From contig JAMDAS010000002.1 in the NCBI GenBank assembly GCA_023484085.1, forward strand, positions 536 to 64,535: a stretch of DNA of 64,000 bases, read 5' to 3'. The position numbers and the translations under genes are program-made. The notes below the pieces were generated by a model. The model saw only the letters and a list, made by a program, of their open reading frames with translations, was not told the origin of the DNA and did not search any database. Below are positions 1,186 to 45,796 of the stretch, piece after piece; within the stretch, counting starts at the first letter, position 1; the number at the start of each line of letters is the position of its first letter. Source of the DNA: Candidatus Omnitrophota bacterium (GTDB lineage Bacteria > Ratteibacteria > UBA8468 > B48-G9 > DTJG01).

Positions 1186-1245
1186 GTGATGAGCGACGAG
1201 TGAAAACCCATGGTTCAAACCCGTCTTCATAGAAGAACTACAAGT
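1186..1245 (-). repeat. Truncated third tRNA-Asp-linked module (B-type left end) abutting the R-M genes
   Basis: Minus strand reads ACTTGTAGTTCTTCTATGAAGACGGGTTTGAACCATGGGTTTTCACTCGTCG. This parallels the start of the B module (ATTAGCAATTTTCTTTGAAGACGGGTTTGAACCCCTTGGGGTTCACCACGACG), then diverges into the MTase upstream region. Confidence 0.5.
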
Positions 1246-1376
1246 CGGGGCCGACGGGATTTGGCGCCCCTCGTTCTCACTACACTCGGGGTCGGCCATT
1301 CGCTGAAATTGTTACGCCCGCTCACAATTTCTTACTTCGCTCTATTCAATTCCCGTCTTCACAGAAAATTGCTAAT
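1246..1376 (-). repeat. tRNA-linked module, family A (Asp locus): trailer, conserved core and terminal copy of the tRNA-Asp 3' end
   Basis: 1246-1263 repeats CGGGGCCGACGGGATTTG, the 3' end of tRNA-Asp from the T-loop onward. The core at 1264-1376 closely matches 8740-8851 and 8871-8981 (GAGCGAAGTAAGA..hairpin..CAGCGNATGGCCGACCCCGAGTGTAGTGNGAACGAGGGGCGC on the minus strand). Confidence 0.8.
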
Positions 1377-1527
1377 CGGGGCCGACGGGATTATGCTATA
1401 ACTATTCAAGATGCACTATTGACGCATATACTCCTCAACTTTGGAAAGTATACTATCTGTATAGCATAAACAATCGTCGTGGTGAACCCCAAGGGGTTCA
1501 AACCCGTCTTCAAAGAAAATTGCTAAT
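1377..1527 (-). repeat. tRNA-linked module, family B (Asp locus): trailer, core and terminal copy of the tRNA-Asp 3' end
   Basis: 1377-1392 repeats CGGGGCCGACGGGATT. The core at 1393-1527 aligns with the Ser-locus module 45047-45179. Shared blocks are TAGCAAT, TTGAACC, GGGTTCACCACNACG, CTTTCCAAAG and GCGTCAATNGTGCATCTTGNATNGTTNTAGCA. Confidence 0.8.
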
Positions 1528-1601
1528 CGGGGCCGACGGGATTTGAACCCGCGATCTTCGGATCGACAATCCGACATGTTAAACCGCTGCACCACGGCCC
1601 C
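1528..1601 (-). tRNA. tRNA-Asp (GTC)
   Basis: 74-nt cloverleaf on the minus strand. Acceptor GGGGCCG/CGGCCCC, anticodon stem TCGGA/TCCGA with loop TTGTCGA, T arm GCGGG-TTCAAAT-CCCGT, discriminator G. No CCA is encoded. Confidence 0.9.
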
Positions 1602-4087: not shown

Positions 4088-6103
4088 ATGGCTACTTTTA
4101 ATATTGGAATTTTTGGACACAGTAAATCCGGAAAAACAATTTTAGGGGAGGCTATTTTATTTAAGGCTGCTGTTATAGACAGAATGGGTGGCATTAACCA
4201 GGGTAATACCCTGCTTGATTATGAAGAGGAAGAGAAAAAGAGGCTGATGAGTATAAATCTTGCCACAGCATATTTCAACTGGAAAAAGAATCTTTGTTTC
4301 CTTGTTGATAGTCCAGGGTATATGGATTTTATCGGTGAACAGATTTCTGCCTCTTATGCCATTGACCTTGGTATTATTAATATTGCTTCTGATAGCGGGA
4401 TAGAGGTGGGAACGGAAAAATCTTATGAAATACTAAAAAAACAGGGTATACCTCTGATTATTTTTTTAAATAAGATTGACGCAGAACAGGCAGATTTTAA
4501 AAACATATCCAAACAGGTATCTGAGTGGCTGGGGAAAAAAACCATTCTTATTACCTACCCGGGAATAAATGCTCAAAAGATTGAGAAAGTTATAAACGTT
4601 GCTGATGATAAACAGCCTCTTCCGGAAATATCGGAATACAGACAAAATTTTTTAGACTCTATTGCAGAACTTGATGATTCTTTAATGGAAAAATATCTTG
4701 GCGGGGGTAATATTACACAGGAAGAAATGGCAAAAGTTTTAAAAACAGGGATTACCAACGGTAATCTAATCCCTGTTTTTTCAGGTTCAGGGGCTAACCA
4801 GTCAGGGATAGAAGAACTCCTTGATTTTATCGTTGAATTTTGTCCGGATACCTCTTGTTTACCACCTGCAAAAGAAAAAACACCTGATGGTAAAGATGTT
4901 TTATTGGAAAGGAAGGGACAGGAACATCTTTCAGGTATTGTATTTAAAACACATTTTGACACCCTTATGGGCAGAATTTCCTATCTCAGGGTTATATCAG
5001 GCACACTTTCTGCAAACTCAAATTTTTATAATGGTACAAAGGGGGTAAAAGACCGGATTGGACAGATTTTTCGTATGAAAGGTAAAAAGCAGGAGATTGT
5101 GGCAGAAGCTGTGGCAGGAGAAATAGTGGGTGTTACCAAACTAAATGGTTTTGGCACTTTTGATACGTTTTCCGATGCGTCTTTCCCTGCTATTTATGAA
5201 AAGCCGGAAATTCCGGAAAGCTCCCTGTCTTTTTCTATCACTCCAAAGATAAAAGGTACGGAAGATAAATTAGGCAATGCAATATCAAAAATTATGGAAG
5301 AGGACCTGACGCTAAAAATTTCCAGGGATAATGAAACAGGAGAAACGATAATGTCCGGGATGGGGGACGTTCATCTTGAAATTTCCTTAGCCAAGTTTAA
5401 GGAGAAATTTGGAGTGGAGGTTCTACGGGGAATACCAAAGATTGCATACAAGGAAACGATTACTGTCTCCACCGAGGCAGAAGGAAAATTTAAAAGACAG
5501 ACAGGAGGACATGGCCAGTATGGACATTGTTTTATAAGATTAGAGCCTTTATCCAGGGGGAAAGGATTTGAATTTGTTGACAAGATTGTGGGTGGTGCCA
5601 TTCCGAGACAGTACATTCCATCCGTAGAAAAAGGATTAAAAGAAGCAATAAAAAAAGGAACCCTTGCCGGGTATCCGGTCGTAGATGTTAAAGCAACGGT
5701 TTTTGACGGGTCTTATCACGTCGTTGATTCCTCTGACATTGCCTTTCAGATAGCGGCTTCTCTTGCTTTTCAGAAAGGTATGCAGTCATCAAGGCCGGTT
5801 ATCCTTGAACCGATAATGAACGTGGAAATAAACATACCCCAGGAATTTGTAGGAGACGTCATAGGAATAGTCAATGCAAAAAGAGGACGGGTACTGGAGA
5901 TGATTACCCATAGTAACAGCCAGCTCGTAAAAGCGCAAATACCTCTTGCTGAAATGTCAAACTATGCAACAGAATTAAGGTCTCTTACGAGTGGAAGAGG
6001 TTCTTATAGCATGACGTTTGCACATTACGAGGAAGTTCCATCATATCTTGCTGAAAAAATAGTATCAGTCAGAAAAACAGAAAAGGAGGCGGAAAAAACT
6101 TAA
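4088..6103 (+). CDS. Elongation factor G family GTPase (EF-G paralogue with divergent G1)
   Basis: G1 GHSKSGKT, G3 DSPGYMDF, G4 NKID, and the domain IV motif GGHGQYGHC, with an EF-G-like C-terminus. The start is at ATG 4088 after AGGAGG. Confidence 0.85.
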   Translation: MATFNIGIFGHSKSGKTILGEAILFKAAVIDRMGGINQGNTLLDYEEEEKKRLMSINLATAYFNWKKNLCFLVDSPGYMDFIGEQISASYAIDLGIINIASDSGIEVGTEKSYEILKKQGIPLIIFLNKIDAEQADFKNISKQVSEWLGKKTILITYPGINAQKIEKVINVADDKQPLPEISEYRQNFLDSIAELDDSLMEKYLGGGNITQEEMAKVLKTGITNGNLIPVFSGSGANQSGIEELLDFIVEFCPDTSCLPPAKEKTPDGKDVLLERKGQEHLSGIVFKTHFDTLMGRISYLRVISGTLSANSNFYNGTKGVKDRIGQIFRMKGKKQEIVAEAVAGEIVGVTKLNGFGTFDTFSDASFPAIYEKPEIPESSLSFSITPKIKGTEDKLGNAISKIMEEDLTLKISRDNETGETIMSGMGDVHLEISLAKFKEKFGVEVLRGIPKIAYKETITVSTEAEGKFKRQTGGHGQYGHCFIRLEPLSRGKGFEFVDKIVGGAIPRQYIPSVEKGLKEAIKKGTLAGYPVVDVKATVFDGSYHVVDSSDIAFQIAASLAFQKGMQSSRPVILEPIMNVEINIPQEFVGDVIGIVNAKRGRVLEMITHSNSQLVKAQIPLAEMSNYATELRSLTSGRGSYSMTFAHYEEVPSYLAEKIVSVRKTEKEAEKT

Positions 6104-8618: not shown

Positions 8619-8627
8619 CGTCAATCT

Positions 8628-8699
8628 GGACCCGTAGCTCAGCGGCAGAGCACCGGACTCATAATCCGTTGGTTGCAGGTTCGAATCCTGCCGGGTCCA
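8628..8699 (+). tRNA. tRNA with CAT anticodon (elongator Met, or Ile2 if lysidinylated)
   Basis: 72-nt cloverleaf. Acceptor GGACCCG/CGGGTCC, anticodon loop CTCATAA, T arm GCAGG-TTCGAAT-CCTGC. The G1-C72 pair argues against an initiator. tilS is present in this window, so Ile2 is possible. Confidence 0.85.
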
Positions 8700-8715
8700 A
8701 CTTCAATAATTCTTC

Positions 8716-8851
8716 TGTGAGAGACAGGATTTGAATATAGCGCCCCTCGTTCCCACTACACTCGGGGTCGGCCATCCGCTGAGGATTACTACGTTCACTC
8801 GCAATCCTCTTACTTCGCTCCAGTTCAACTCCCCTTAGAATAGATTTGCAA
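8716..8851 (-). repeat. tRNA-linked module, family A (distal copy, Met/Leu intergenic)
   Basis: The core at 8740-8851 is nearly identical to 8871-8981 (period 131 bp, one 1-nt indel). Its outer end, TATATTCAAATCCTGTCTCTCACA (minus strand), is tRNA 3'-end-like and is also the trailer of the converging tRNA-CAT. Confidence 0.8.
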
Positions 8852-22450: not shown

Positions 22451-23626
22451 GTGGAGGATATTTTGTTGTCTAAAATGCCCAGTTTACAAAATACGCTGAA
22501 GAAAAATGCAAAAACAATTTTCATAGTCGTCATTATCCTGTTTGTCTTTATAACACTGTTAACGTCCCGGTTGACGGCAAACAGGCAGAAAATACCCCGA
22601 GCCAACGAAAACGTAACCGGAATACTCGGTATTCAGGGGGAAGAAGGTCAAATCTATAACAAAGCCATTGAATCCCGGGTTAACAACGTATCAAACAATT
22701 TAGAACAATTTCAGAACCAGCTGGACGCCCTCCAAAAACAAAACCAGGCACTGACGGACCAGAACAAGCTTTTGAATGCTGAATTGAGACACATCAATGA
22801 CAGAGTAGATAAAAAAATGAATGAGAATCTCAACGAGGCAATGAATAAAATAGAAACAAAAATATCAAACATTATTCCCACCCGGCAGGTTTCTGCTCCA
22901 TCAACTCCACAATCAGAAAGACTTCAAATTATCAGCTTCCCGCAGAAAAAACAGGAACAGACATCTTACAGTCAAAAAGAACTATATCTTCCGGCAGGTT
23001 CTTTTGTAAAAGGTACGTTATTAAGCGGTGTGTTCGCCCCGGAGAACAAATCAAATCCTCTGCCTGTGGTTTTTTCAGTTGACCAGGCGTTTAATGGTCC
23101 TGCAGGAAGTAAAATCCCGCTTAAAGGAATGCTCGGTATAGGAAAAGCACAGGCGGACATAAATTCAAGCAGGGCGGTTATCCAGGTTGTCAGACTTGCA
23201 TACGTATTCCCTGATGGAAAGGTCTGGGAAAAGAATGTTAATGGTTGGGTCTGTGGTCCTGATGATATTCTTGGAGTAAAAGGAAAGATAATTCAGCAAA
23301 CAGGCAGGGCTTTGGCAGGGGCATTCACTTCAGGGTTTCTTTCCGGGGCATCACAGGCTTTATCACAGGCACAAACATCCACACAGCAAACCATTTCAGG
23401 AACACTTGAAACAAATGTGACAGGAAACACTACAAAGTATGGATTATATTCAGGGCTTGCCTCTGCGGCAGGAAACCTTTCAAACTATTATTCCGGTATG
23501 CTGAATCAGATTATCACAGCAATCAAGATCAGGGCAGGGACACCAATACAGATAGTAATGGAAAAAGGAGTATCAATTGAAAGCGGCAACGATTATAACA
23601 ATCATGGGTATTCTTATCATCAGTAG
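22451..23626 (+). CDS. traB: TraB/VirB10 (TrbI family)-like T4SS core protein
   Basis: Short cytoplasmic N-terminus, one TM helix (IFIVVIILFVFITLLTS), a coiled coil (LEQFQNQLDALQKQNQALTDQNKLLNAEL), then a TrbI-type beta domain (LPAGSFVKGTLLSGV...GKAQADINSSRAVIQVVRL...GTPIQIVMEKGVSI). The true start may be TTG 22466 or ATG 22475. Confidence 0.8.
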   Translation: MEDILLSKMPSLQNTLKKNAKTIFIVVIILFVFITLLTSRLTANRQKIPRANENVTGILGIQGEEGQIYNKAIESRVNNVSNNLEQFQNQLDALQKQNQALTDQNKLLNAELRHINDRVDKKMNENLNEAMNKIETKISNIIPTRQVSAPSTPQSERLQIISFPQKKQEQTSYSQKELYLPAGSFVKGTLLSGVFAPENKSNPLPVVFSVDQAFNGPAGSKIPLKGMLGIGKAQADINSSRAVIQVVRLAYVFPDGKVWEKNVNGWVCGPDDILGVKGKIIQQTGRALAGAFTSGFLSGASQALSQAQTSTQQTISGTLETNVTGNTTKYGLYSGLASAAGNLSNYYSGMLNQIITAIKIRAGTPIQIVMEKGVSIESGNDYNNHGYSYHQ

Positions 23627-30381: not shown

Positions 30382-31476
30382 TCAGGGCTTGATGGGCATT
30401 ACTATATATACGTAATTTTCATTTCCTTCAGGAGCTATTTGGGCCGGTTTTGTCGGTTCCGTAAAAGAAAGCCTTATGTTTTCCTCTTCAACAGTTTTTA
30501 AAAAATCTATCAGATATACAGGATTAAAAATCATAGTAACGTCCGGACCTGAATATTCTATCTTGATTTTTTCCTCTCCTAATCCTATATCAGGGCTTTC
30601 AAGGTTGAGAACAAGAAGGTTTTGCCTGAAATGCATGTATAAAGAGTTAAAATTCAGACTTGATAAGAGATTTATACGGGAAAGGGAAGAAAAAAGCTCT
30701 TTTGTGTTTATTTTTGCATAATTGAGCTTTCCTGATGGAAATACCGTGTTATAGTTGGGAAATTCCCCTTCAAGAAGTTGGGATGTTAATAATATCCTGT
30801 CAGTACTGAAACTTATCTGATTTTTTGATACAGCCACTTTCATTTTTTCATCCTTTACAAGGTAGGGGAAAACCTCCAAAAGTTTATAGGGGAGTAAAAT
30901 TTTTAATAAGTTTTTGTTGGATGTTTCTTTTTTTATTAAACCCATACGTCGTGTATCCGTTCCCACCATTGTTAATATTCTGGTATCTGAATTAAACAAA
31001 GCACCCCTGAAATATACACGGGCTTCCTGGGGATTTATACAATAACAGGTTTTTTTAATCATATCTACAAAATCTTCGGAAGATAAAACAAAGGAATTGG
31101 CTTCTGAAGAAATATCCTGCTCCGGAAGCTTGGGGAAATCCTCAATTGACATTGTAAGAAGTTTATATTGAAAATTTTTATTTTCAATTATTAAATAATT
31201 ATCTTTTGTTATCATTTTTATTGAGGATTCAGGAAGTTCTTTTATCAGGGAAATAAAATTTTTCCCTGGAATAAGAATACTGCCTTTTTCCTTGACAGAA
31301 CCTTCCATGAATATTTTTAAGGTTAACTGAAGGTCTGTTGTTGTAAATGATACCCCTTCTTTTTTCGCCTCCATTAAAATTCCGCCCAAACTTACGATTG
31401 GGGGTTTTAAAGGAAGCACTTTACCCATTTTTTCTATAATTCCCGATAATTCTTTTCTTTCTATTATTAATTCCAT
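30382..31476 (-). CDS. dnaN: DNA polymerase III beta sliding clamp
   Basis: 364 aa with three-domain clamp-like periodicity, located directly downstream of dnaA; C-terminal YIVMPIKP. Confidence 0.9.
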   Translation of the reverse strand: MELIIERKELSGIIEKMGKVLPLKPPIVSLGGILMEAKKEGVSFTTTDLQLTLKIFMEGSVKEKGSILIPGKNFISLIKELPESSIKMITKDNYLIIENKNFQYKLLTMSIEDFPKLPEQDISSEANSFVLSSEDFVDMIKKTCYCINPQEARVYFRGALFNSDTRILTMVGTDTRRMGLIKKETSNKNLLKILLPYKLLEVFPYLVKDEKMKVAVSKNQISFSTDRILLTSQLLEGEFPNYNTVFPSGKLNYAKINTKELFSSLSRINLLSSLNFNSLYMHFRQNLLVLNLESPDIGLGEEKIKIEYSGPDVTMIFNPVYLIDFLKTVEEENIRLSFTEPTKPAQIAPEGNENYVYIVMPIKP

Positions 31477-31586
31477 ATTTACTCCTTTTTTTTAAATAAA
31501 TTAAAATATATATTCTTAGTAATATTGTGTAAAAGTTATATCTTGTTGAAATTCATATACTTATAATGTGTGTTTCCTGTGAAGAA

Positions 31587-32879
31587 CTATTCATGTAAGC
31601 TGTTTATTATTTTTTCAATGGACATTTTTAAATAAGAATCTGTTTCCAATTGTGTTTTTAATTTTTTACAGGCATATAAAATCGTTGTATGGTCTTTTCC
31701 TCCAAATTCTTCAGCGATGGCAGTAAGAGACATATCTGTTTTTTCCCTTGCTATATACATTGCTATCTGTCTTGGTACAACAAGTGTTTTTAATCTTCTT
31801 GAGCTTTTTAAATCATGAACGCTGATGTTAAAATAAAAGGCAACCTTTTCCTGTATTTTTTCAATGGTTATGATTTTCTTCTGGGATGAAATAAGATCCC
31901 TGAGATATTCTTTTGTTATGTTTATGTCAAGGGTTTTATTTAAAAGAGATGAGATGGCAATAAGTCTGTTAAGTGCACCTTCAAGAAGCCTGACGTTATC
32001 ATGAATATTTTCAGCTATATAAAAAACAACGTCATCATCCAAAAATATTTTTTTTAATTCACATTTTTTCCGTAAAATCGCAACCCGTGTTTCAAATTCA
32101 GGGGGTTTAAGGTCAGTTACAAGACCCCATTCAAAACGTGAAACAAGTCTTTTTTCAAGGGAAAACAATTCTTTGGGTGGCCTGTCACTGGTAAGAATTA
32201 TCTGTTTTTTCTGGTCATAAAGAGAGTTAAACGTATTAAAAAACTCTTCCTGGGTACCTTCTTTACCTGCTATAAAATGTATGTCATCTATAAGTAGAAT
32301 ATCCAGGGAACGAAAATTATTTCTAAAAGTATTCATTGTTTTTGTCTGGATGGATTGTATAAAAAGATTAACAAAATTTTCACATGGAAGATAGGCTGTT
32401 TTACAGTTATTGGTTTTGATTGCCATGGAACCTATTGCCTGTATAAGATGTGTTTTTCCCAAACCCACGCCGCCATATATGAAAAATGGATTATAGGCTA
32501 TTCCCGGTGACTGGGCGATTGCAATTCCTGCAGCATGTGCCAATTGATTACATTGACCGCGGACAAAATTATCAAAAGAATTTGCCGGATTAAGTTTTTC
32601 ACCAAAATAAAGGGAGGGAGGATTTTTTTTGGATTCCGGGTACGACCACTTTATTTCCATGTTATAACCTGTAATGTTTGATAAGGATTCCCTTAAATCA
32701 TTGATAAAACCGCTGATTCCTTTGTAAAACAATGGATTTGGGATTTCAAGGTATATATAATTATTCTCGATTTTTACAGGTTTGATAGGTTTTATCCATG
32801 TTTCAAAAGCCCTGTCATTTCTTATTCTATCTTTTAAGTTTCTTAACACTAAATCCCAGTTTTTCCACAAGTTATCCAC
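31587..32879 (-). CDS. dnaA: Chromosomal replication initiator DnaA
   Basis: Walker A GGVGLGKTHL, box LLIDDIHF, sensor TSDRPP, C-terminal HTH (DHTTILYACKK). GTG start at 32879. Confidence 0.95.
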   Translation of the reverse strand: MDNLWKNWDLVLRNLKDRIRNDRAFETWIKPIKPVKIENNYIYLEIPNPLFYKGISGFINDLRESLSNITGYNMEIKWSYPESKKNPPSLYFGEKLNPANSFDNFVRGQCNQLAHAAGIAIAQSPGIAYNPFFIYGGVGLGKTHLIQAIGSMAIKTNNCKTAYLPCENFVNLFIQSIQTKTMNTFRNNFRSLDILLIDDIHFIAGKEGTQEEFFNTFNSLYDQKKQIILTSDRPPKELFSLEKRLVSRFEWGLVTDLKPPEFETRVAILRKKCELKKIFLDDDVVFYIAENIHDNVRLLEGALNRLIAISSLLNKTLDINITKEYLRDLISSQKKIITIEKIQEKVAFYFNISVHDLKSSRRLKTLVVPRQIAMYIAREKTDMSLTAIAEEFGGKDHTTILYACKKLKTQLETDSYLKMSIEKIINSLHE

Positions 32880-42799: not shown

Positions 42800-44047
42800 A
42801 TGGTAAATGCAAAAATAATAATCGGGGACAGCAGAAAAATGCTCGAGGTTAAAAATGATAGTATAGATTTAGTCGTAACTTCGCCGCCATATTGGCATAT
42901 TAAAGATTATGGCGTTGGAGGTCAAATAGGATATGGCCAATCTTTACATGAGTATCTCAAAAGTTTATTTCTCGTCTGGAAAGAATGTTTCAGAACCCTA
43001 AAACCCGGAACAAGGTTATGCATAAATATAGGCGACCAATTTTTAAGAAGCATAATTTACGGAAGATATAAAATAGCCCCGCTTCATTCCGAATTTATAA
43101 CCCAATGTGAAAAAATCGGTTTTGATTATATGGGTTCAATAATTTGGCAGAAGAAAACAACAATGAACACTACAGGTGGAGCGAGTATAATGGGTTCCTA
43201 TCCCTATCCGCCCAATGGATTAGTGGAAATAGACTATGAATTTATTTTAATTTTCAAAAAGCCGGGAAAAACCATGTTTTCTAAGGAATCGAAAGAAAAG
43301 TCAAAATTAACCAAGGAGGAATGGAAAGAATATTTTTCCGGACACTGGAATTTTAATGGAGAAAGACAAGCCGGACATGAAGCAATGTTTCCGGAAGAAT
43401 TACCAAAAAGACTAATTAAAATGTTCACGTTTGTCGGAGATACTGTATTGGACCCATTTTTGGGAAGCGGCACTACCCTTAAATCCGCTATAAATTTGGG
43501 CCGAAACTCTATAGGATATGAAATAAATGATGAATTCCTGTCCATGATAAAAAATAAAATTGAACTAAATGGAACTTTGTTTGCTTTAAATCATCAAGTA
43601 GAAATCCTGAAACAAAATAAATCAATTTCAATAGAAAACGATATTGATTATATTCCCAATATCAAAGATGCAAAACCAGTTATCTCCCCGGATAAATTCA
43701 AATTTGATAAAGAAAGATTATACAAAGTAGTAAACATTTTAAACGAAAAAACCATTGAATTGGATACAGGCCTTAAAATAACATTTCTAGGCGTAAATAG
43801 TATTCCTCAGCAATCCAATAAGGCAATGAACTATCTTGAAGAATACGTTAGAGGGAAACAAGTATTCTTAAAATTTGATTCCTTATTCAAATCAACTACA
43901 AATGGAATACCTGCTTATGTATTCCTCAAAAATAAAATTTTCATCAATAAAGAGCTGATTAAACAAAAATTTGCAAATATTCCGGACTATAACTTTAAAT
44001 ACAAAGATACCTTTGAAAAACTAATGACAGGAACGACACATGGCTAA
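42800..44047 (+). CDS. DNA methyltransferase (SPPY motif, N4-cytosine/N6-adenine beta class) fused to a degenerate SNase-like C-terminal domain
   Basis: Motif IV VVTSPPYW near the N-terminus and motif I LDPFLGSGTT at about aa 217. Residues ~305-395 follow the thermonuclease fold pattern (ITFLGVNSIP..., GIPAYVFLKNKIFINKELIKQKFA), but the catalytic D/R/E residues are replaced. Confidence 0.8.
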   Translation: MVNAKIIIGDSRKMLEVKNDSIDLVVTSPPYWHIKDYGVGGQIGYGQSLHEYLKSLFLVWKECFRTLKPGTRLCINIGDQFLRSIIYGRYKIAPLHSEFITQCEKIGFDYMGSIIWQKKTTMNTTGGASIMGSYPYPPNGLVEIDYEFILIFKKPGKTMFSKESKEKSKLTKEEWKEYFSGHWNFNGERQAGHEAMFPEELPKRLIKMFTFVGDTVLDPFLGSGTTLKSAINLGRNSIGYEINDEFLSMIKNKIELNGTLFALNHQVEILKQNKSISIENDIDYIPNIKDAKPVISPDKFKFDKERLYKVVNILNEKTIELDTGLKITFLGVNSIPQQSNKAMNYLEEYVRGKQVFLKFDSLFKSTTNGIPAYVFLKNKIFINKELIKQKFANIPDYNFKYKDTFEKLMTGTTHG

Positions 44048-44672
44048 AGAATGGATTTTGAACAGTGCAACAAACAGATTTCAGATGAATTTCTCAAGAA
44101 ACGTCGGTAAAGTTTCAGAAGAAATAAGAAAATGCTCCCCGAAAAACATTAAAGACTGGGAAAGATACTATTATGCCAATGTTCGGGCCAAAAAACATCT
44201 TATAGACCTTGGAAGAAAATTATTTACAAAAATCACAGAAGTATTACAAGCAGAGATAGAAAGCGTAACAGAACAGGATTGCATAGACTTTATAATCAAT
44301 CTTGTCATCAAAAGAACTTTTGATGGATATGAAACAGAAAGAAAAACAATTTACGGCCAACTGCAGGAAATTCTCAATGTCAAGATTGAACCTGCACCTG
44401 ATGAATGGGACAGATTATATAACGTTGACTTTTTCATAAAAATTAAAGACAAATTTATAGGACTGCAAATCAAACCAGCAGGCGGAGTTTCTCATATTCC
44501 ACAGATTTGGCATGAAAGAACACAGCAAACCAAGACCCATGCAAAATTTACTGCAGAATATGGCGGAAAAGTCTTTTATGTTATATCCATAAAGGATGGA
44601 GATAAAAAGAGGATACACAACAAAGAAGTAATTGGAGAAATAAAAAAGGAAATTAAGAGATTACAGAGTTAA
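44040..44672 (+). CDS. Putative type II restriction endonuclease (cognate of the upstream MTase)
   Basis: 210 aa with an 8-nt overlap with the MTase. Candidate PD-(D/E)xK core YNVDFFIKIKDKFIGLQIKP. It may be MjaI-like, but I cannot verify this from memory. Confidence 0.55.
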   Translation: MAKEWILNSATNRFQMNFSRNVGKVSEEIRKCSPKNIKDWERYYYANVRAKKHLIDLGRKLFTKITEVLQAEIESVTEQDCIDFIINLVIKRTFDGYETERKTIYGQLQEILNVKIEPAPDEWDRLYNVDFFIKIKDKFIGLQIKPAGGVSHIPQIWHERTQQTKTHAKFTAEYGGKVFYVISIKDGDKKRIHNKEVIGEIKKEIKRLQS

Positions 44673-44882: not shown

Positions 44883-44955
44883 AAAATAATCCTCTTCAAT
44901 ATATTAAGAATATGTATTTATGATAAAATAATAGATTGAGAGATTAGTAAAATCT

Positions 44956-45046
44956 GGAGGGGTCGCATAGAGGCCTAGTGCGGCGGATTGCTAATCCGTT
45001 GTATCGTCGCAAGGCGATACCGTGGGTTCAAATCCCACCCCCTCCG
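44956..45046 (+). tRNA. tRNA-Ser (GCT)
   Basis: 91 nt. Acceptor GGAGGGG/CCCCTCC, anticodon stem GCGGA/TCCGT with loop TTGCTAA, long variable arm (GTATCGTCGCAAGGCGATACC), T arm GTGGG-TTCAAAT-CCCAC. Confidence 0.9.
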
Positions 45047-45196
45047 TATAGCAATCTTCTACGGAGGTGGGAATTGAACCACGGGTTCACCACTACGGCT
45101 GTTTTTACCATACAGGAAGTTGCTTTCCAAAGAAGCCGTAGAGTGTGCGTCAATGGTGCATCTTGTATGGTTCTAGCACAATCCCACCCCCTCCGT
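45047..45196 (+). repeat. tRNA-linked module, family B (Ser locus) ending in a copy of the tRNA-Ser 3' end
   Basis: 45180-45196 AATCCCACCCCCTCCG duplicates 45030-45046. The core aligns with the Asp-locus B module. The 5' segment ACGGAGGTGGGA is complementary to the tRNA-Ser 3' end. Confidence 0.85.
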
Positions 45197-45217
45197 ATAG
45201 CAATCTTCTACGGAGGG
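45197..45217 (+). repeat. Second copy of the tRNA-Ser trailer (start of a third, diverged unit)
   Basis: TATAGCAATCTTCTACGGAGG repeats 45047-45067 exactly. The sequence then diverges into the toxin-antitoxin region. Confidence 0.7.
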
Positions 45218-45316
45218 TAACATATTAGCGTTAAAAAGTAAATTTCTATTTTTCTATCCCCTCAAGAAAGAGAGGATTTTACACTATTGATTACTTGCGA
45301 AATTTATTAAAGGGTA

Positions 45317-45568
45317 TTATTTATAAACATCTCTTCTGTGTCCAACTTTAAGAATTATAATATTGATATCTTCCAAATCGAAAATCACACGGTATTCTCC
45401 AATTCTATAGCGCCACTCTCCAAAGCGTGAATCTTTTATTTTTTCAGCAAAAATTAAAGGATTTTCTTGAGAAATAAAAAAATCAAGTTTGTCCTTAATC
45501 CTTTTCTGAATTTCTTTTTCAAGAGAAGATAATTGACGAAAAGAACGATTAGAAAAAATAATATTCAT
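45317..45568 (-). CDS. relE: RelE/ParE family type II toxin
   Basis: 83 aa: WRYRIGEYRVIFDLEDINIIILKVGHRRDVYK, the classic RelE/StbE C-terminus. Confidence 0.85.
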   Translation of the reverse strand: MNIIFSNRSFRQLSSLEKEIQKRIKDKLDFFISQENPLIFAEKIKDSRFGEWRYRIGEYRVIFDLEDINIIILKVGHRRDVYK

Positions 45569-45577
45569 TGAAAGAAC

Positions 45578-45796
45578 TCAGGAAATTTTTAATTTCTTTT
45601 TAACTTCGGCAAAACTAATTACTTTTCCTTCTTTAACCTCTTCTCTAACTTTTTTTATCTCTTTAGCTAAATTTTCTGAACGATACATTTCCCAATCTTC
45701 CAATTCTTCCTCAATCTCTTCCCATTTCTTCAATGGCAATATTACTACTCCTTCTTTTTTCTGTATATCTTCTTTTGACAATGTTATATTTTTCAT
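45578..45796 (-). CDS. Type II antitoxin (Phd/YefM- or RelB-like) paired with RelE
   Basis: 72 aa, acidic (VVILPLKKWEEIEEELEDWEMY). It lies 9 nt upstream of the toxin gene in the canonical antitoxin-first order. Confidence 0.7.
   Translation of the reverse strand: MKNITLSKEDIQKKEGVVILPLKKWEEIEEELEDWEMYRSENLAKEIKKVREEVKEGKVISFAEVKKKLKIS

Follow-up and report, generated by a model that had tools for sequence, protein, structure and literature searches.

Tandem modules with copies of the tRNA 3′ end lie behind tRNA genes

The DNA examined here (the window, that is, the whole 64-kb stretch that was analysed) is a bacterial chromosome segment of 37% G+C carrying dnaA, dnaN, secA, mnmE and htpX, and the nearest homologues of its HtpX carry the name Candidatus Omnitrophica. 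An initial annotation had described two short modules, A and B, lying in the tandem order B, A, truncated B behind the tRNA-Asp gene, each closed by a copy of the tRNA 3′ end, and this arrangement was borne out by ARAGORN, Rfam and repeat searches (Table 1). A 41-nucleotide (nt) junction was found three times, at 1503-1543, 1352-1392 and 1221-1261, with spacings of 151 and 131 nt, and the 16-mer AATCCCGTCGGCCCCG has exactly 3 occurrences in the 64 kb against 0.01 expected. Each junction is made up of the tRNA sequence from the T-loop to the discriminator base, a spacer of ~19 nt and an inverted segment, GACGGG(T/A)(T/A)TTGAA, which is complementary to the 3′ strand of the T-stem and to the T-loop of tRNA-Asp; as had been claimed, every unit opens with GAAGACGGG, the complement of the T-stem 3′ strand. 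Two details had to be adjusted: the earlier core lengths of 135 and 113 nt include the arm and the copy, the cores themselves being 104 nt (B) and 81 nt (A), and the duplicated block does begin inside the T-loop, with an exact start that differs, at C56 for A and A58 for B.

BLAST against the window confirmed that the same cores recur near 8.7 kb and 45 kb. Behind tRNA-Leu the two A cores lie at 8871-8954 and 8740-8823, and their spacer, arm and copy are all tailored to tRNA-Leu; these A copies sit between convergent tRNA-Met and tRNA-Leu genes, and the relic behind tRNA-Met adjoins the reverse A of the Leu array. The B core behind tRNA-Ser is ~73-77% identical by BLAST and alignment to the one behind tRNA-Asp, and its arm extends the pairing to the acceptor strand. 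Four of five tRNAs in the window species carry a unit or a relic, tRNA-Phe being the one without.

Table 1. Coordinates of the tRNA-linked modules and adjacent features in the window
Feature	Position	Strand	Support or remark
Broken open reading frame (ORF) downstream of the methylase at 289-1107	73-285
N6/N4 methylase, PF01555	289-1107	(-)	beyond the truncated B of the tRNA-Asp array
Junction 3 (spacer 1226-1245, inverted arm 1214-1225) and ~21 nt of truncated B (1193-1213)	1193-1245	(-)
Direct repeat of the tRNA-Asp 3′ part from C56 through the discriminator, forming the 3′ strand of A helix P1	1246-1263	(-)
A core, 81 nt, with helices P2 and P3 and conserved purine-rich joining strands	1264-1344	(-)	match to covariance model R1, 127.3 bits
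Junction 2: spacer (1358-1376) and inverted arm GACGGGAATTGAA (1345-1357)	1345-1376	(-)	98% identity with junction 1
Direct repeat of the tRNA-Asp 3′ part from A58 through the discriminator, closing the B unit	1377-1392	(-)
B core, full length, 104 nt	1393-1496	(-)	same sequence in independent assembly L002
Junction 1: 19-nt spacer (1509-1527) and inverted T-arm segment GACGGGTTTGAA (1497-1508)	1497-1527	(-)	also found as inverted repeat
First repeat copy, the final 16-18 nt of tRNA-Asp	1528-1545	(-)
tRNA-Asp(GTC), intact, no encoded CCA	1528-1601	(-)	ARAGORN; Rfam tRNA 64.4 bits
Relic that follows tRNA-Met (8627-8701), made up of a spacer, the inverted arm CAGGATTTGAA and the initial ~7 nt of an A core in forward orientation	8700-8742	(+)
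Two tandem A units behind tRNA-Leu(CAA) (8982-9064)	8740-8981	(-)	R1 119.7 and 107.1 bits
Second restriction-modification (R-M) pair: N6/N4 methylase and MjaI-type endonuclease	42800-44672	(+)	just upstream of tRNA-Ser
B unit behind tRNA-Ser(GCT) (44955-45047)	45047-45217	(+)	37-nt perfect repeat
Parts of the Ser B unit: spacer 45047-61; arm 45062-78; B core 45079-45179; copy 45180-95
3′ end of the Ser B unit: second spacer and 7 nt of arm	45196-45217	(+)
ORFs of 83 and 72 amino acids	45317-45796	(-)	directly downstream of the Ser B unit

That the arrays might be chance similarity or an assembly artefact is effectively refuted. Short-read contigs do often break inside the arrays, but the repeat counts are far above chance, the covariation described below holds across species, and identical arrays appear in independent assemblies and samples: the independent assembly L002 has an identical tRNA-Asp and B, its contig breaking off within the second tRNA 3′-end copy, and the array of a relative is identical in four assemblies.

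Core A has the conservation of a structured RNA

An alignment of the 11 distinct A copies gave a three-helix junction. In this structure P1 is formed by the inverted arm paired with the downstream tRNA copy, P2 is a 7-base pair (bp) hairpin with an 11-nt loop, GAGYNRRCRNA, and P3, CG(A)CCCC-GA-GU…AC-GA-GGGG-CG, contains tandem GA and a 9-nt loop, the joining strands GAAGAGAGCGAAGUAAG and CAGCGARUGG being almost invariant. Standard pairs account for 95.6% of the cells, and changes on both sides were found in 13 of the 23 pairs; none of 500 column shuffles reached these pairing values, and sliding the partners by 1-3 columns left 37-54% pairing. The divergent copies behind tRNA-Met preserve P3 through swaps such as GU/AC to AC/GU. 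The G+C content of the cores is 53-61% as compared with 37% for the window. An ORF at 8835-9050 was rejected as protein-coding, as it overlaps tRNA-Leu and the observed changes preserve the base pairs of the RNA helices.

As judged from the sequence, we favour the tRNA-sense strand as the RNA strand because of the tandem G-A pairs, the purine-rich joints and the constant co-orientation with the tRNA, and also because the arrays contain no promoter or terminator patterns and the folding energies are somewhat lower. For B, comparison of two full copies showed changes on both sides in 5 pairs, which lie in the long stem, and the structure proposed for it is provisional. We conclude that A is a new conserved structured RNA of an uncultured phylum and that B probably is one as well. 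The covariation of A and its tRNA-derived closing helix agree best with the alternative offered by the initial annotation, in which a structured RNA is tethered to the tRNA and retargeted in a modular way.

This strong structural conservation, the constant orientation and the lack of a separate promoter or terminator would also suit host-serving trailer RNAs that are co-transcribed with the tRNAs and processed free, might act by binding tRNA or by controlling its folding or processing, and spread by segmental duplication and gene conversion, not by transposition. So would the arm's predicted ability to pair with the tRNA's own T-arm: in minimum-energy folds predicted for read-through transcripts (1180-1601 on the minus strand and 44955-45240 on the plus strand) the first arm pairs with the 3′ strand of that T-arm. 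Were such pairing to form, tRNA folding could be disturbed or regulated by the units, except where 3′ processing is fast.

Modules abut tRNA genes and their arms track the tRNA sequence

Genomes and metagenomes were scanned with a motif of the A loop that proved too strict, as copies found later differ from it by one base; it yielded three loci in genomes, and one real locus together with one chance match in metagenomes. Additional loci came from a looser pattern, from the covariance model R1 for A and from protein-anchored look-ups. The motif scan placed A behind tRNA-Thr(TGT) in L003 and L007, and behind tRNA-Thr(GGT) and tRNA-Gln in the metagenome-assembled genome (MAG) FK4.bin61, which we treated as one species with GCA_027425435.1 because their trigger factors are identical; the looser pattern and R1 added A behind tRNA-Gly(CCC) in FK4.bin61. 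At the tRNA-Asp of the relative with 87% HtpX (L008) we found A and then a truncated B, three more taxa (L017, L019 and L027) have a full A at the orthologous tRNA-Met, and in the relative species A is present at 5/5 sampled tRNAs. Both strands of ~190 kb were searched with the A model, and each of its 11 distinct matches directly adjoins either the 3′ end of a tRNA or the unit before it and has the orientation of the tRNA; the model had no match in the searched loci without tRNAs. The view of A and B as non-coding, non-autonomous and tied to tRNA 3′ ends is thereby upheld, and the same cores, with flanks that match the tRNA, are now documented for Asp, Leu, Met, Ser, Thr-GGT, Thr-TGT, Gly and Gln.

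At gathering threshold, Rfam 15 reports only five tRNAs in the window, and at E<10 nothing credible at 1150-1620. BLAST of the B+A region gave no match among GenBank phages and PLSDB plasmids, and exact-motif scans of viral contigs (IMG/VR) gave nothing, or three chance matches inside coding regions without tRNAs. A literature search retrieved no description of such tRNA-tail modules, and a preprint on Omnitrophota contains no tRNA-linked elements. The modules are wider in distribution than first seen and are explained by no catalogued family.

All units, 131-151 bp in size, follow the order tRNA tail, spacer (14-25 nt), inverted arm, core and second tRNA tail, and no promoter or terminator patterns were found between the tRNA and the units or inside the arrays. 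The inverted arm always terminates in the complement of T54 (…TTGAA or …TCGAA); its left limit is variable, lying at position 63-66 in most units and extending as far as the discriminator in the B unit of tRNA-Ser. The core joins the downstream tRNA copy at a fixed position of the T-loop, between GGTT and C56 in all A and between A57 and A58 in B, and in B the inverted segment spans the T-arm in full, with a GGGTTCA hairpin partner coming after it. In eight of the nine A units tested, the longest exact complementarity of the arm to its own tRNA is 7-12 nt, the exception being the Gly unit, as compared with 3-6 nt to most unrelated tRNAs; tRNAs with the CAAATCCC T-loop (Asp, Gly, Thr-TGT and Ser) match such arms equally well.

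Turnover at orthologous tRNAs and a switch of tRNA species

At orthologous tRNA-Asp genes the window has B, A and truncated B, and the 87%-HtpX relative has A and truncated B. The relative's A is of a different subtype, being 86% identical to the Leu A of the window as compared with 83% to its Asp A. Because the truncated B is common to both species it represents the oldest Asp unit, and because the full B sits beside the tRNA and is absent in the relative it represents the newest, in agreement with the earlier suggestion that the arrays grow beside the tRNA. The A cores behind tRNA-Thr-GGT, tRNA-Gly and tRNA-Gln of FK4.bin61 are 96-98% identical to one another, with unrelated spacers and differing arms. 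The Gly unit carries an arm, AGGGAGTTGAA, that matches the T-arm of tRNA-Leu at 11/11 positions versus a 5-nt run to Gly, and its spacer is Leu-like, yet both of its 18-nt flanking copies are pure tRNA-Gly. This mismatch between arm and copies indicates that the travelling piece consists of spacer, arm and core, starting 0-3 nt from the end of the donor tRNA, and that the repeat is made from the target. The repeat in L019, which is exactly C56-73, points the same way.

At tRNA-Met, spacer, arm and A were inherited in four taxa and are diverging or decaying there; the window retains only the spacer, the arm and ~7 nt of A. The distal copy is free to decay: in L017 the distal tRNA-Met copy is interrupted by an insertion of ~57 nt (5590-5660). 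We conclude that the modules are duplicative, mobile and non-autonomous, that they invariably lie directly against a tRNA and in its orientation, and that they can switch tRNA species. As a separate observation, the L017 insert is made of two short hairpins in which the T-stem strand and its complement are used again (CCTGC…GCAGG and CCTGCC…GGCAGG); it is possibly a module of a third, smaller kind or the outcome of hairpin-templated mutation.

These findings bear on the trailer RNAs considered above. The near-saturation of the sampled tRNAs and the old, vertically kept tRNA-Met copy in four taxa would fit RNAs that serve the host, but the presence/absence and subtype turnover at orthologous sites, the relics, truncated units and decaying tRNA-Met copies, and the Leu-type arm at Gly would not; nor would two unrelated cores with a variable copy number per tRNA, or a family found in few genomes only. 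We therefore regard host-serving trailer RNAs as an unlikely explanation.

Among tRNA-targeting tyrosine-integrase elements there is a class of attachment (att) sites with a T-loop sublocation, and there are derivatives of the CIME (cis-mobilizable element) type. The initial annotation had ascribed A and B to this mechanism; in that case they would be CIME-like miniatures moved by a tyrosine integrase that acts in trans and crosses over in the T-loop, with the arrays arising through serial integration. The direct repeat running from the T-loop to the end of the tRNA, as in the T-loop att class, the position of the newest unit beside the tRNA, and the presence of putative defence islands at the same tRNAs (R-M at 289-1107 and 42800-44672, toxin-antitoxin at 45317-45796) would all agree with it. 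However, neither an integrase nor a transposase or reverse transcriptase was found near the modules among the 20 window ORFs analysed by Pfam or the called genes of related loci, although a trans-acting integrase helper would escape this search; no outer att copy lies within the window; and neither the RNA-type covariation nor the invariance of the joining strands is expected from integrase action. Moreover, att recombination expects donor sequence in one copy and one tRNA per element, and both expectations fail, since the Gly unit combines a donor-type, Leu-like arm with target-type Gly copies on both sides, and one core occurs at 8 or more tRNA species and is near-identical at three of them in one genome. 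We thus consider the integrase mechanism improbable.

Integrative elements that duplicate the tRNA tail, with their non-autonomous derivatives, are nevertheless the closest kind among known systems. Like them, the modules insert at the 3′ part of a tRNA, repeat its sequence from the T-loop to the gene end and leave the tRNA intact, and they form tandem arrays with decayed distal members. Unlike them, the modules have no integrase, have a core that is not confined to one tRNA species but spread over 8 or more, contain an extra inverted T-arm segment, possess two repeats that are both apparently target-derived, and show RNA-type selection on the core; their size of 131-151 bp also differs, and would be very small for a double-stranded circle. 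The tandem ssrA islands of Dehalococcoides (PMC3146451) are an example of tRNA/tmRNA (transfer-messenger RNA)-targeting integrative elements.

A proposed copy-in model with duplication of the target tail

The modules A and B, both non-coding and unrelated to each other, belong to one architectural family, which resides in the tRNA 3′ trailers of an Omnitrophota clade. For the picture as a whole, we propose a retargetable module family that is copied into the trailers with duplication of the target's tail, a proposal to which we give about an even chance of being right. To the observed association with tRNAs, structure, turnover and, in one case, target-type repeats with a donor-type arm, this model would add a breakage site, an intermediate, a guide role for the arm and an enzyme acting in trans. 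Insertion would occur at the T-loop/3′ end, duplicating the target's own last 16-19 nt and leaving the tRNA intact; new units would enter beside the tRNA, and older ones would be pushed outward and decay to spacer-plus-arm relics. Spacer, arm and core would travel jointly, from about the point where tRNA 3′ processing would cut, with the arm as the target-matching, guide-like part that would be quickly brought into register with the new tRNA, perhaps through hairpin-templated correction against the nearby tRNA copy or through variation of the guide before insertion. Staggered breaks might be made between T55 and C56 and near the tRNA end, or the copy-in might be target-primed or proceed by template switching. 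The most likely route would be replicative copy-in via a read-through tRNA transcript or a single strand, with an enzyme whose gene lies elsewhere; we consider conservative recombination by an integrase less likely. Duplication of the target tail would explain the intact tRNA, the fixed junction between core and T-loop, the unrelated spacers of the three near-identical A copies in one genome and the entry beside the tRNA, and an RNA or single-strand intermediate is attractive because the travelling piece starts at the tRNA processing site and because the constraint on the core is of the RNA type.

Several points weigh against this model. The sample comprises four or five species and only two full B copies, and one mechanism is proposed for two cores, A and B, that are unrelated. 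No candidate mobilising enzyme was found in the loci examined. The inserted segment is deduced and not seen, as the loci recovered include no close-relative empty site: the HtpX relatives P0007 and P0006 have no neighbouring tRNA-Asp, the trigger-factor relatives have no tRNA-Ser, and a contig of the same species ends short of tRNA-Ser and gave no empty site there. The repeat has no constant right edge: the edge lies at +0 in L019 (where the repeat is exactly C56-73), at +3 (Gly), +13 (L007) and +23 (L017) and reaches about +50 nt, and the repeat takes in the arm in L005 and the Ser unit of the window and the first core bases at the Thr unit of L004. Such long repeats might result from self-reinsertion, local homogenisation or gene conversion followed by distal 3′ loss, which is an extra assumption. 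The arms are already tRNA-specific in near-identical young copies. The strand counts in A, 3 G-U cells versus 2 A-C cells, hardly separate the two strands, both of which fold well, and the predicted pairing of the arm with the T-arm would disrupt the cloverleaf, a cost to the host unless 3′ processing is fast.

A more radical possibility, in our estimate an improbable but real one, is that the trailer RNA is itself mobile, which would make it an RNA-guided, protein-gene-free, tRNA-hopping insertion element and thus categorically new. In that case 3′ processing would release the RNA, its 5′ arm would pair with a tRNA gene or pre-tRNA at the T-loop/T-stem and so set the core's 3′ end between T55 and C56, and the core would be copied in with duplication of the tRNA tail by its own catalysis, by a host polymerase or by a reverse transcriptase; small changes in the arm would retarget it.

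In this group of Omnitrophota nearly all tRNA genes examined carry one to three of the modules, each with its core closed by a helix copied from the T-arm of that tRNA. They have the appearance of a retargetable mobile element not described before, one in which the tail of the tRNA is copied and the gene stays unbroken. If this is true, a non-coding element of ~130-150 nt inserts harmlessly at essential tRNA genes with its specificity residing in a short, target-tracking helix, which would be a new answer to the 'safe harbour' problem of mobile DNA and could point to a minimal programmable targeting principle. Whatever the mechanism, A and B provide a ready marker of strain-level dynamics in Omnitrophota.

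Comparison with other repeats and guide-bearing elements

Miniature inverted-repeat transposable elements (MITEs) resemble the modules in being small, non-coding and multi-copy, with inverted-repeat ends and a fold closed by a stem. In contrast to MITEs, the inverted ends of the modules copy the target tRNA and change with it and are not element-specific, the flanking repeat is variable at 16-50 nt and not a short fixed duplication, and every copy found lies behind a tRNA gene in the orientation of the tRNA. In CRISPR adaptation, likewise, a partly palindromic repeat (here 37-50 nt) is duplicated at the leader end, a position taken here by the tRNA body, with each new unit; however, what lies between the repeats of the modules is one of two conserved structured cores, the repeat is set by the tRNA, and no cas genes were seen. 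CRISPR was rejected since its supposed 'spacers' are conserved cores.

Guide-bearing mobile RNAs include group I and II introns with their guide and exon-binding sequences, the omega RNAs of IS200/IS605 elements and the bridge RNAs of IS110. The modules share with these a constant structured core beside short, target-tracking segments, and differ from them in having no Rfam match and no associated protein gene and in duplicating the target segment; moreover, the module core is much smaller than intron ribozymes. We also considered that the units are remnants of the OMEGA type, in which the core would be a guide-RNA scaffold, the tRNA flank the guide and the GGTT/GTTC of the T-loop the adjacent motif. 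The resemblance, a scaffold of ~80-100 nt followed by 16-19 nt of locus-specific sequence at a fixed T-loop site beside a motif that all tRNAs share, is one of form only, and a Y1 transposase gene does exist in one Omnitrophota relative (L018). Nevertheless, tnpA, tnpB or iscB lies near no copy, Rfam gives no match to known scaffolds, the left end is tRNA-specific and not a conserved hairpin, and the IS200/IS605 family makes no target duplication, which would leave the intact tRNA unexplained; we hold this origin to be very improbable. A derivation from IS200/IS605 in general is likewise not supported, given the tRNA-specific left end, the lack of an Rfam match at E<10 and the lack of such genes in the loci. 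The Y1 gene of L018 (1741-2364) encodes a 207-amino-acid transposase of the IS200/IS605 or RAYT type beside a nucleotidyltransferase/HEPN pair, unlinked to A or B, and possibly exemplifies a class of trans-acting single-strand nuclease in the phylum.

Four further candidates were rejected. For an integron attC site, the T-loop and its complement are only partly like RYYYAAC ... GTTRRRY, the junction lies after TT and not between G and TT, and neither an ORF nor intI is present. A tRNA-primed retroelement does not fit an arm that reaches from T54 to about 65, has no complement to CCA and, apart from the Ser B unit, does not pair with the acceptor strand. Hammerhead or hepatitis delta virus (HDV)-like ribozymes share only a three-way topology or the GCGAAUGG string with the modules, and none of their models matched. 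A tmRNA or tRNA-like gene on the opposite strand was sought with ARAGORN and Rfam, and both were negative.

Neighbouring genes and further observations

The initial annotation had the truncated B running on into the methyltransferase gene and took the R-M pair as cargo of a full or decayed member of the element family. The first did not hold, as ~85 nt with a promoter-like site lie before the ATG of the methylase at 1107. The genes also do not look like cargo: the methylase has its own promoter-like site, unrelated genes follow the truncated B of the relative, and within the window itself there is no further copy of the tRNA-Asp tail. Downstream of the Ser B unit, the 83-amino-acid product ends in a RelE/ParE-like motif (…YRVIFDL…VGHRRDVYK), and the sequence suggests that the two small ORFs form a toxin-antitoxin pair. 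Close to the tRNA-Met locus of a relative there is another ParE-like gene (L019, 3147-3416). The tRNA neighbourhoods here are general hot spots of accessory genes.

In a relative with 64% HtpX (L014, 6149-6210), GAAGACAGGGAAACGAAG lies 36 nt 3′ of tRNA-Asp and is followed by a terminator-like hairpin. It resembles a decayed inverted arm with the beginning of a core, perhaps an ancient relic and possibly a spacer-plus-arm without core like the one at the tRNA-Met of the window.

Short-read contigs from several samples end inside the first or second module (L001 at 3142, L002 at 1890, L010, L012, and L027 at 1688). The A/B repeats systematically fragment Omnitrophota assemblies at tRNA genes, and the copy number of the modules is probably underestimated in MAGs.

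At 22.4-23.6 kb (22451-23626, plus strand) the window encodes a TrbI-like conjugation/type IV secretion protein. dnaN and dnaA are adjacent to each other (30382-32879, minus strand), and because the two genes stand side by side the window probably contains the replication origin region.

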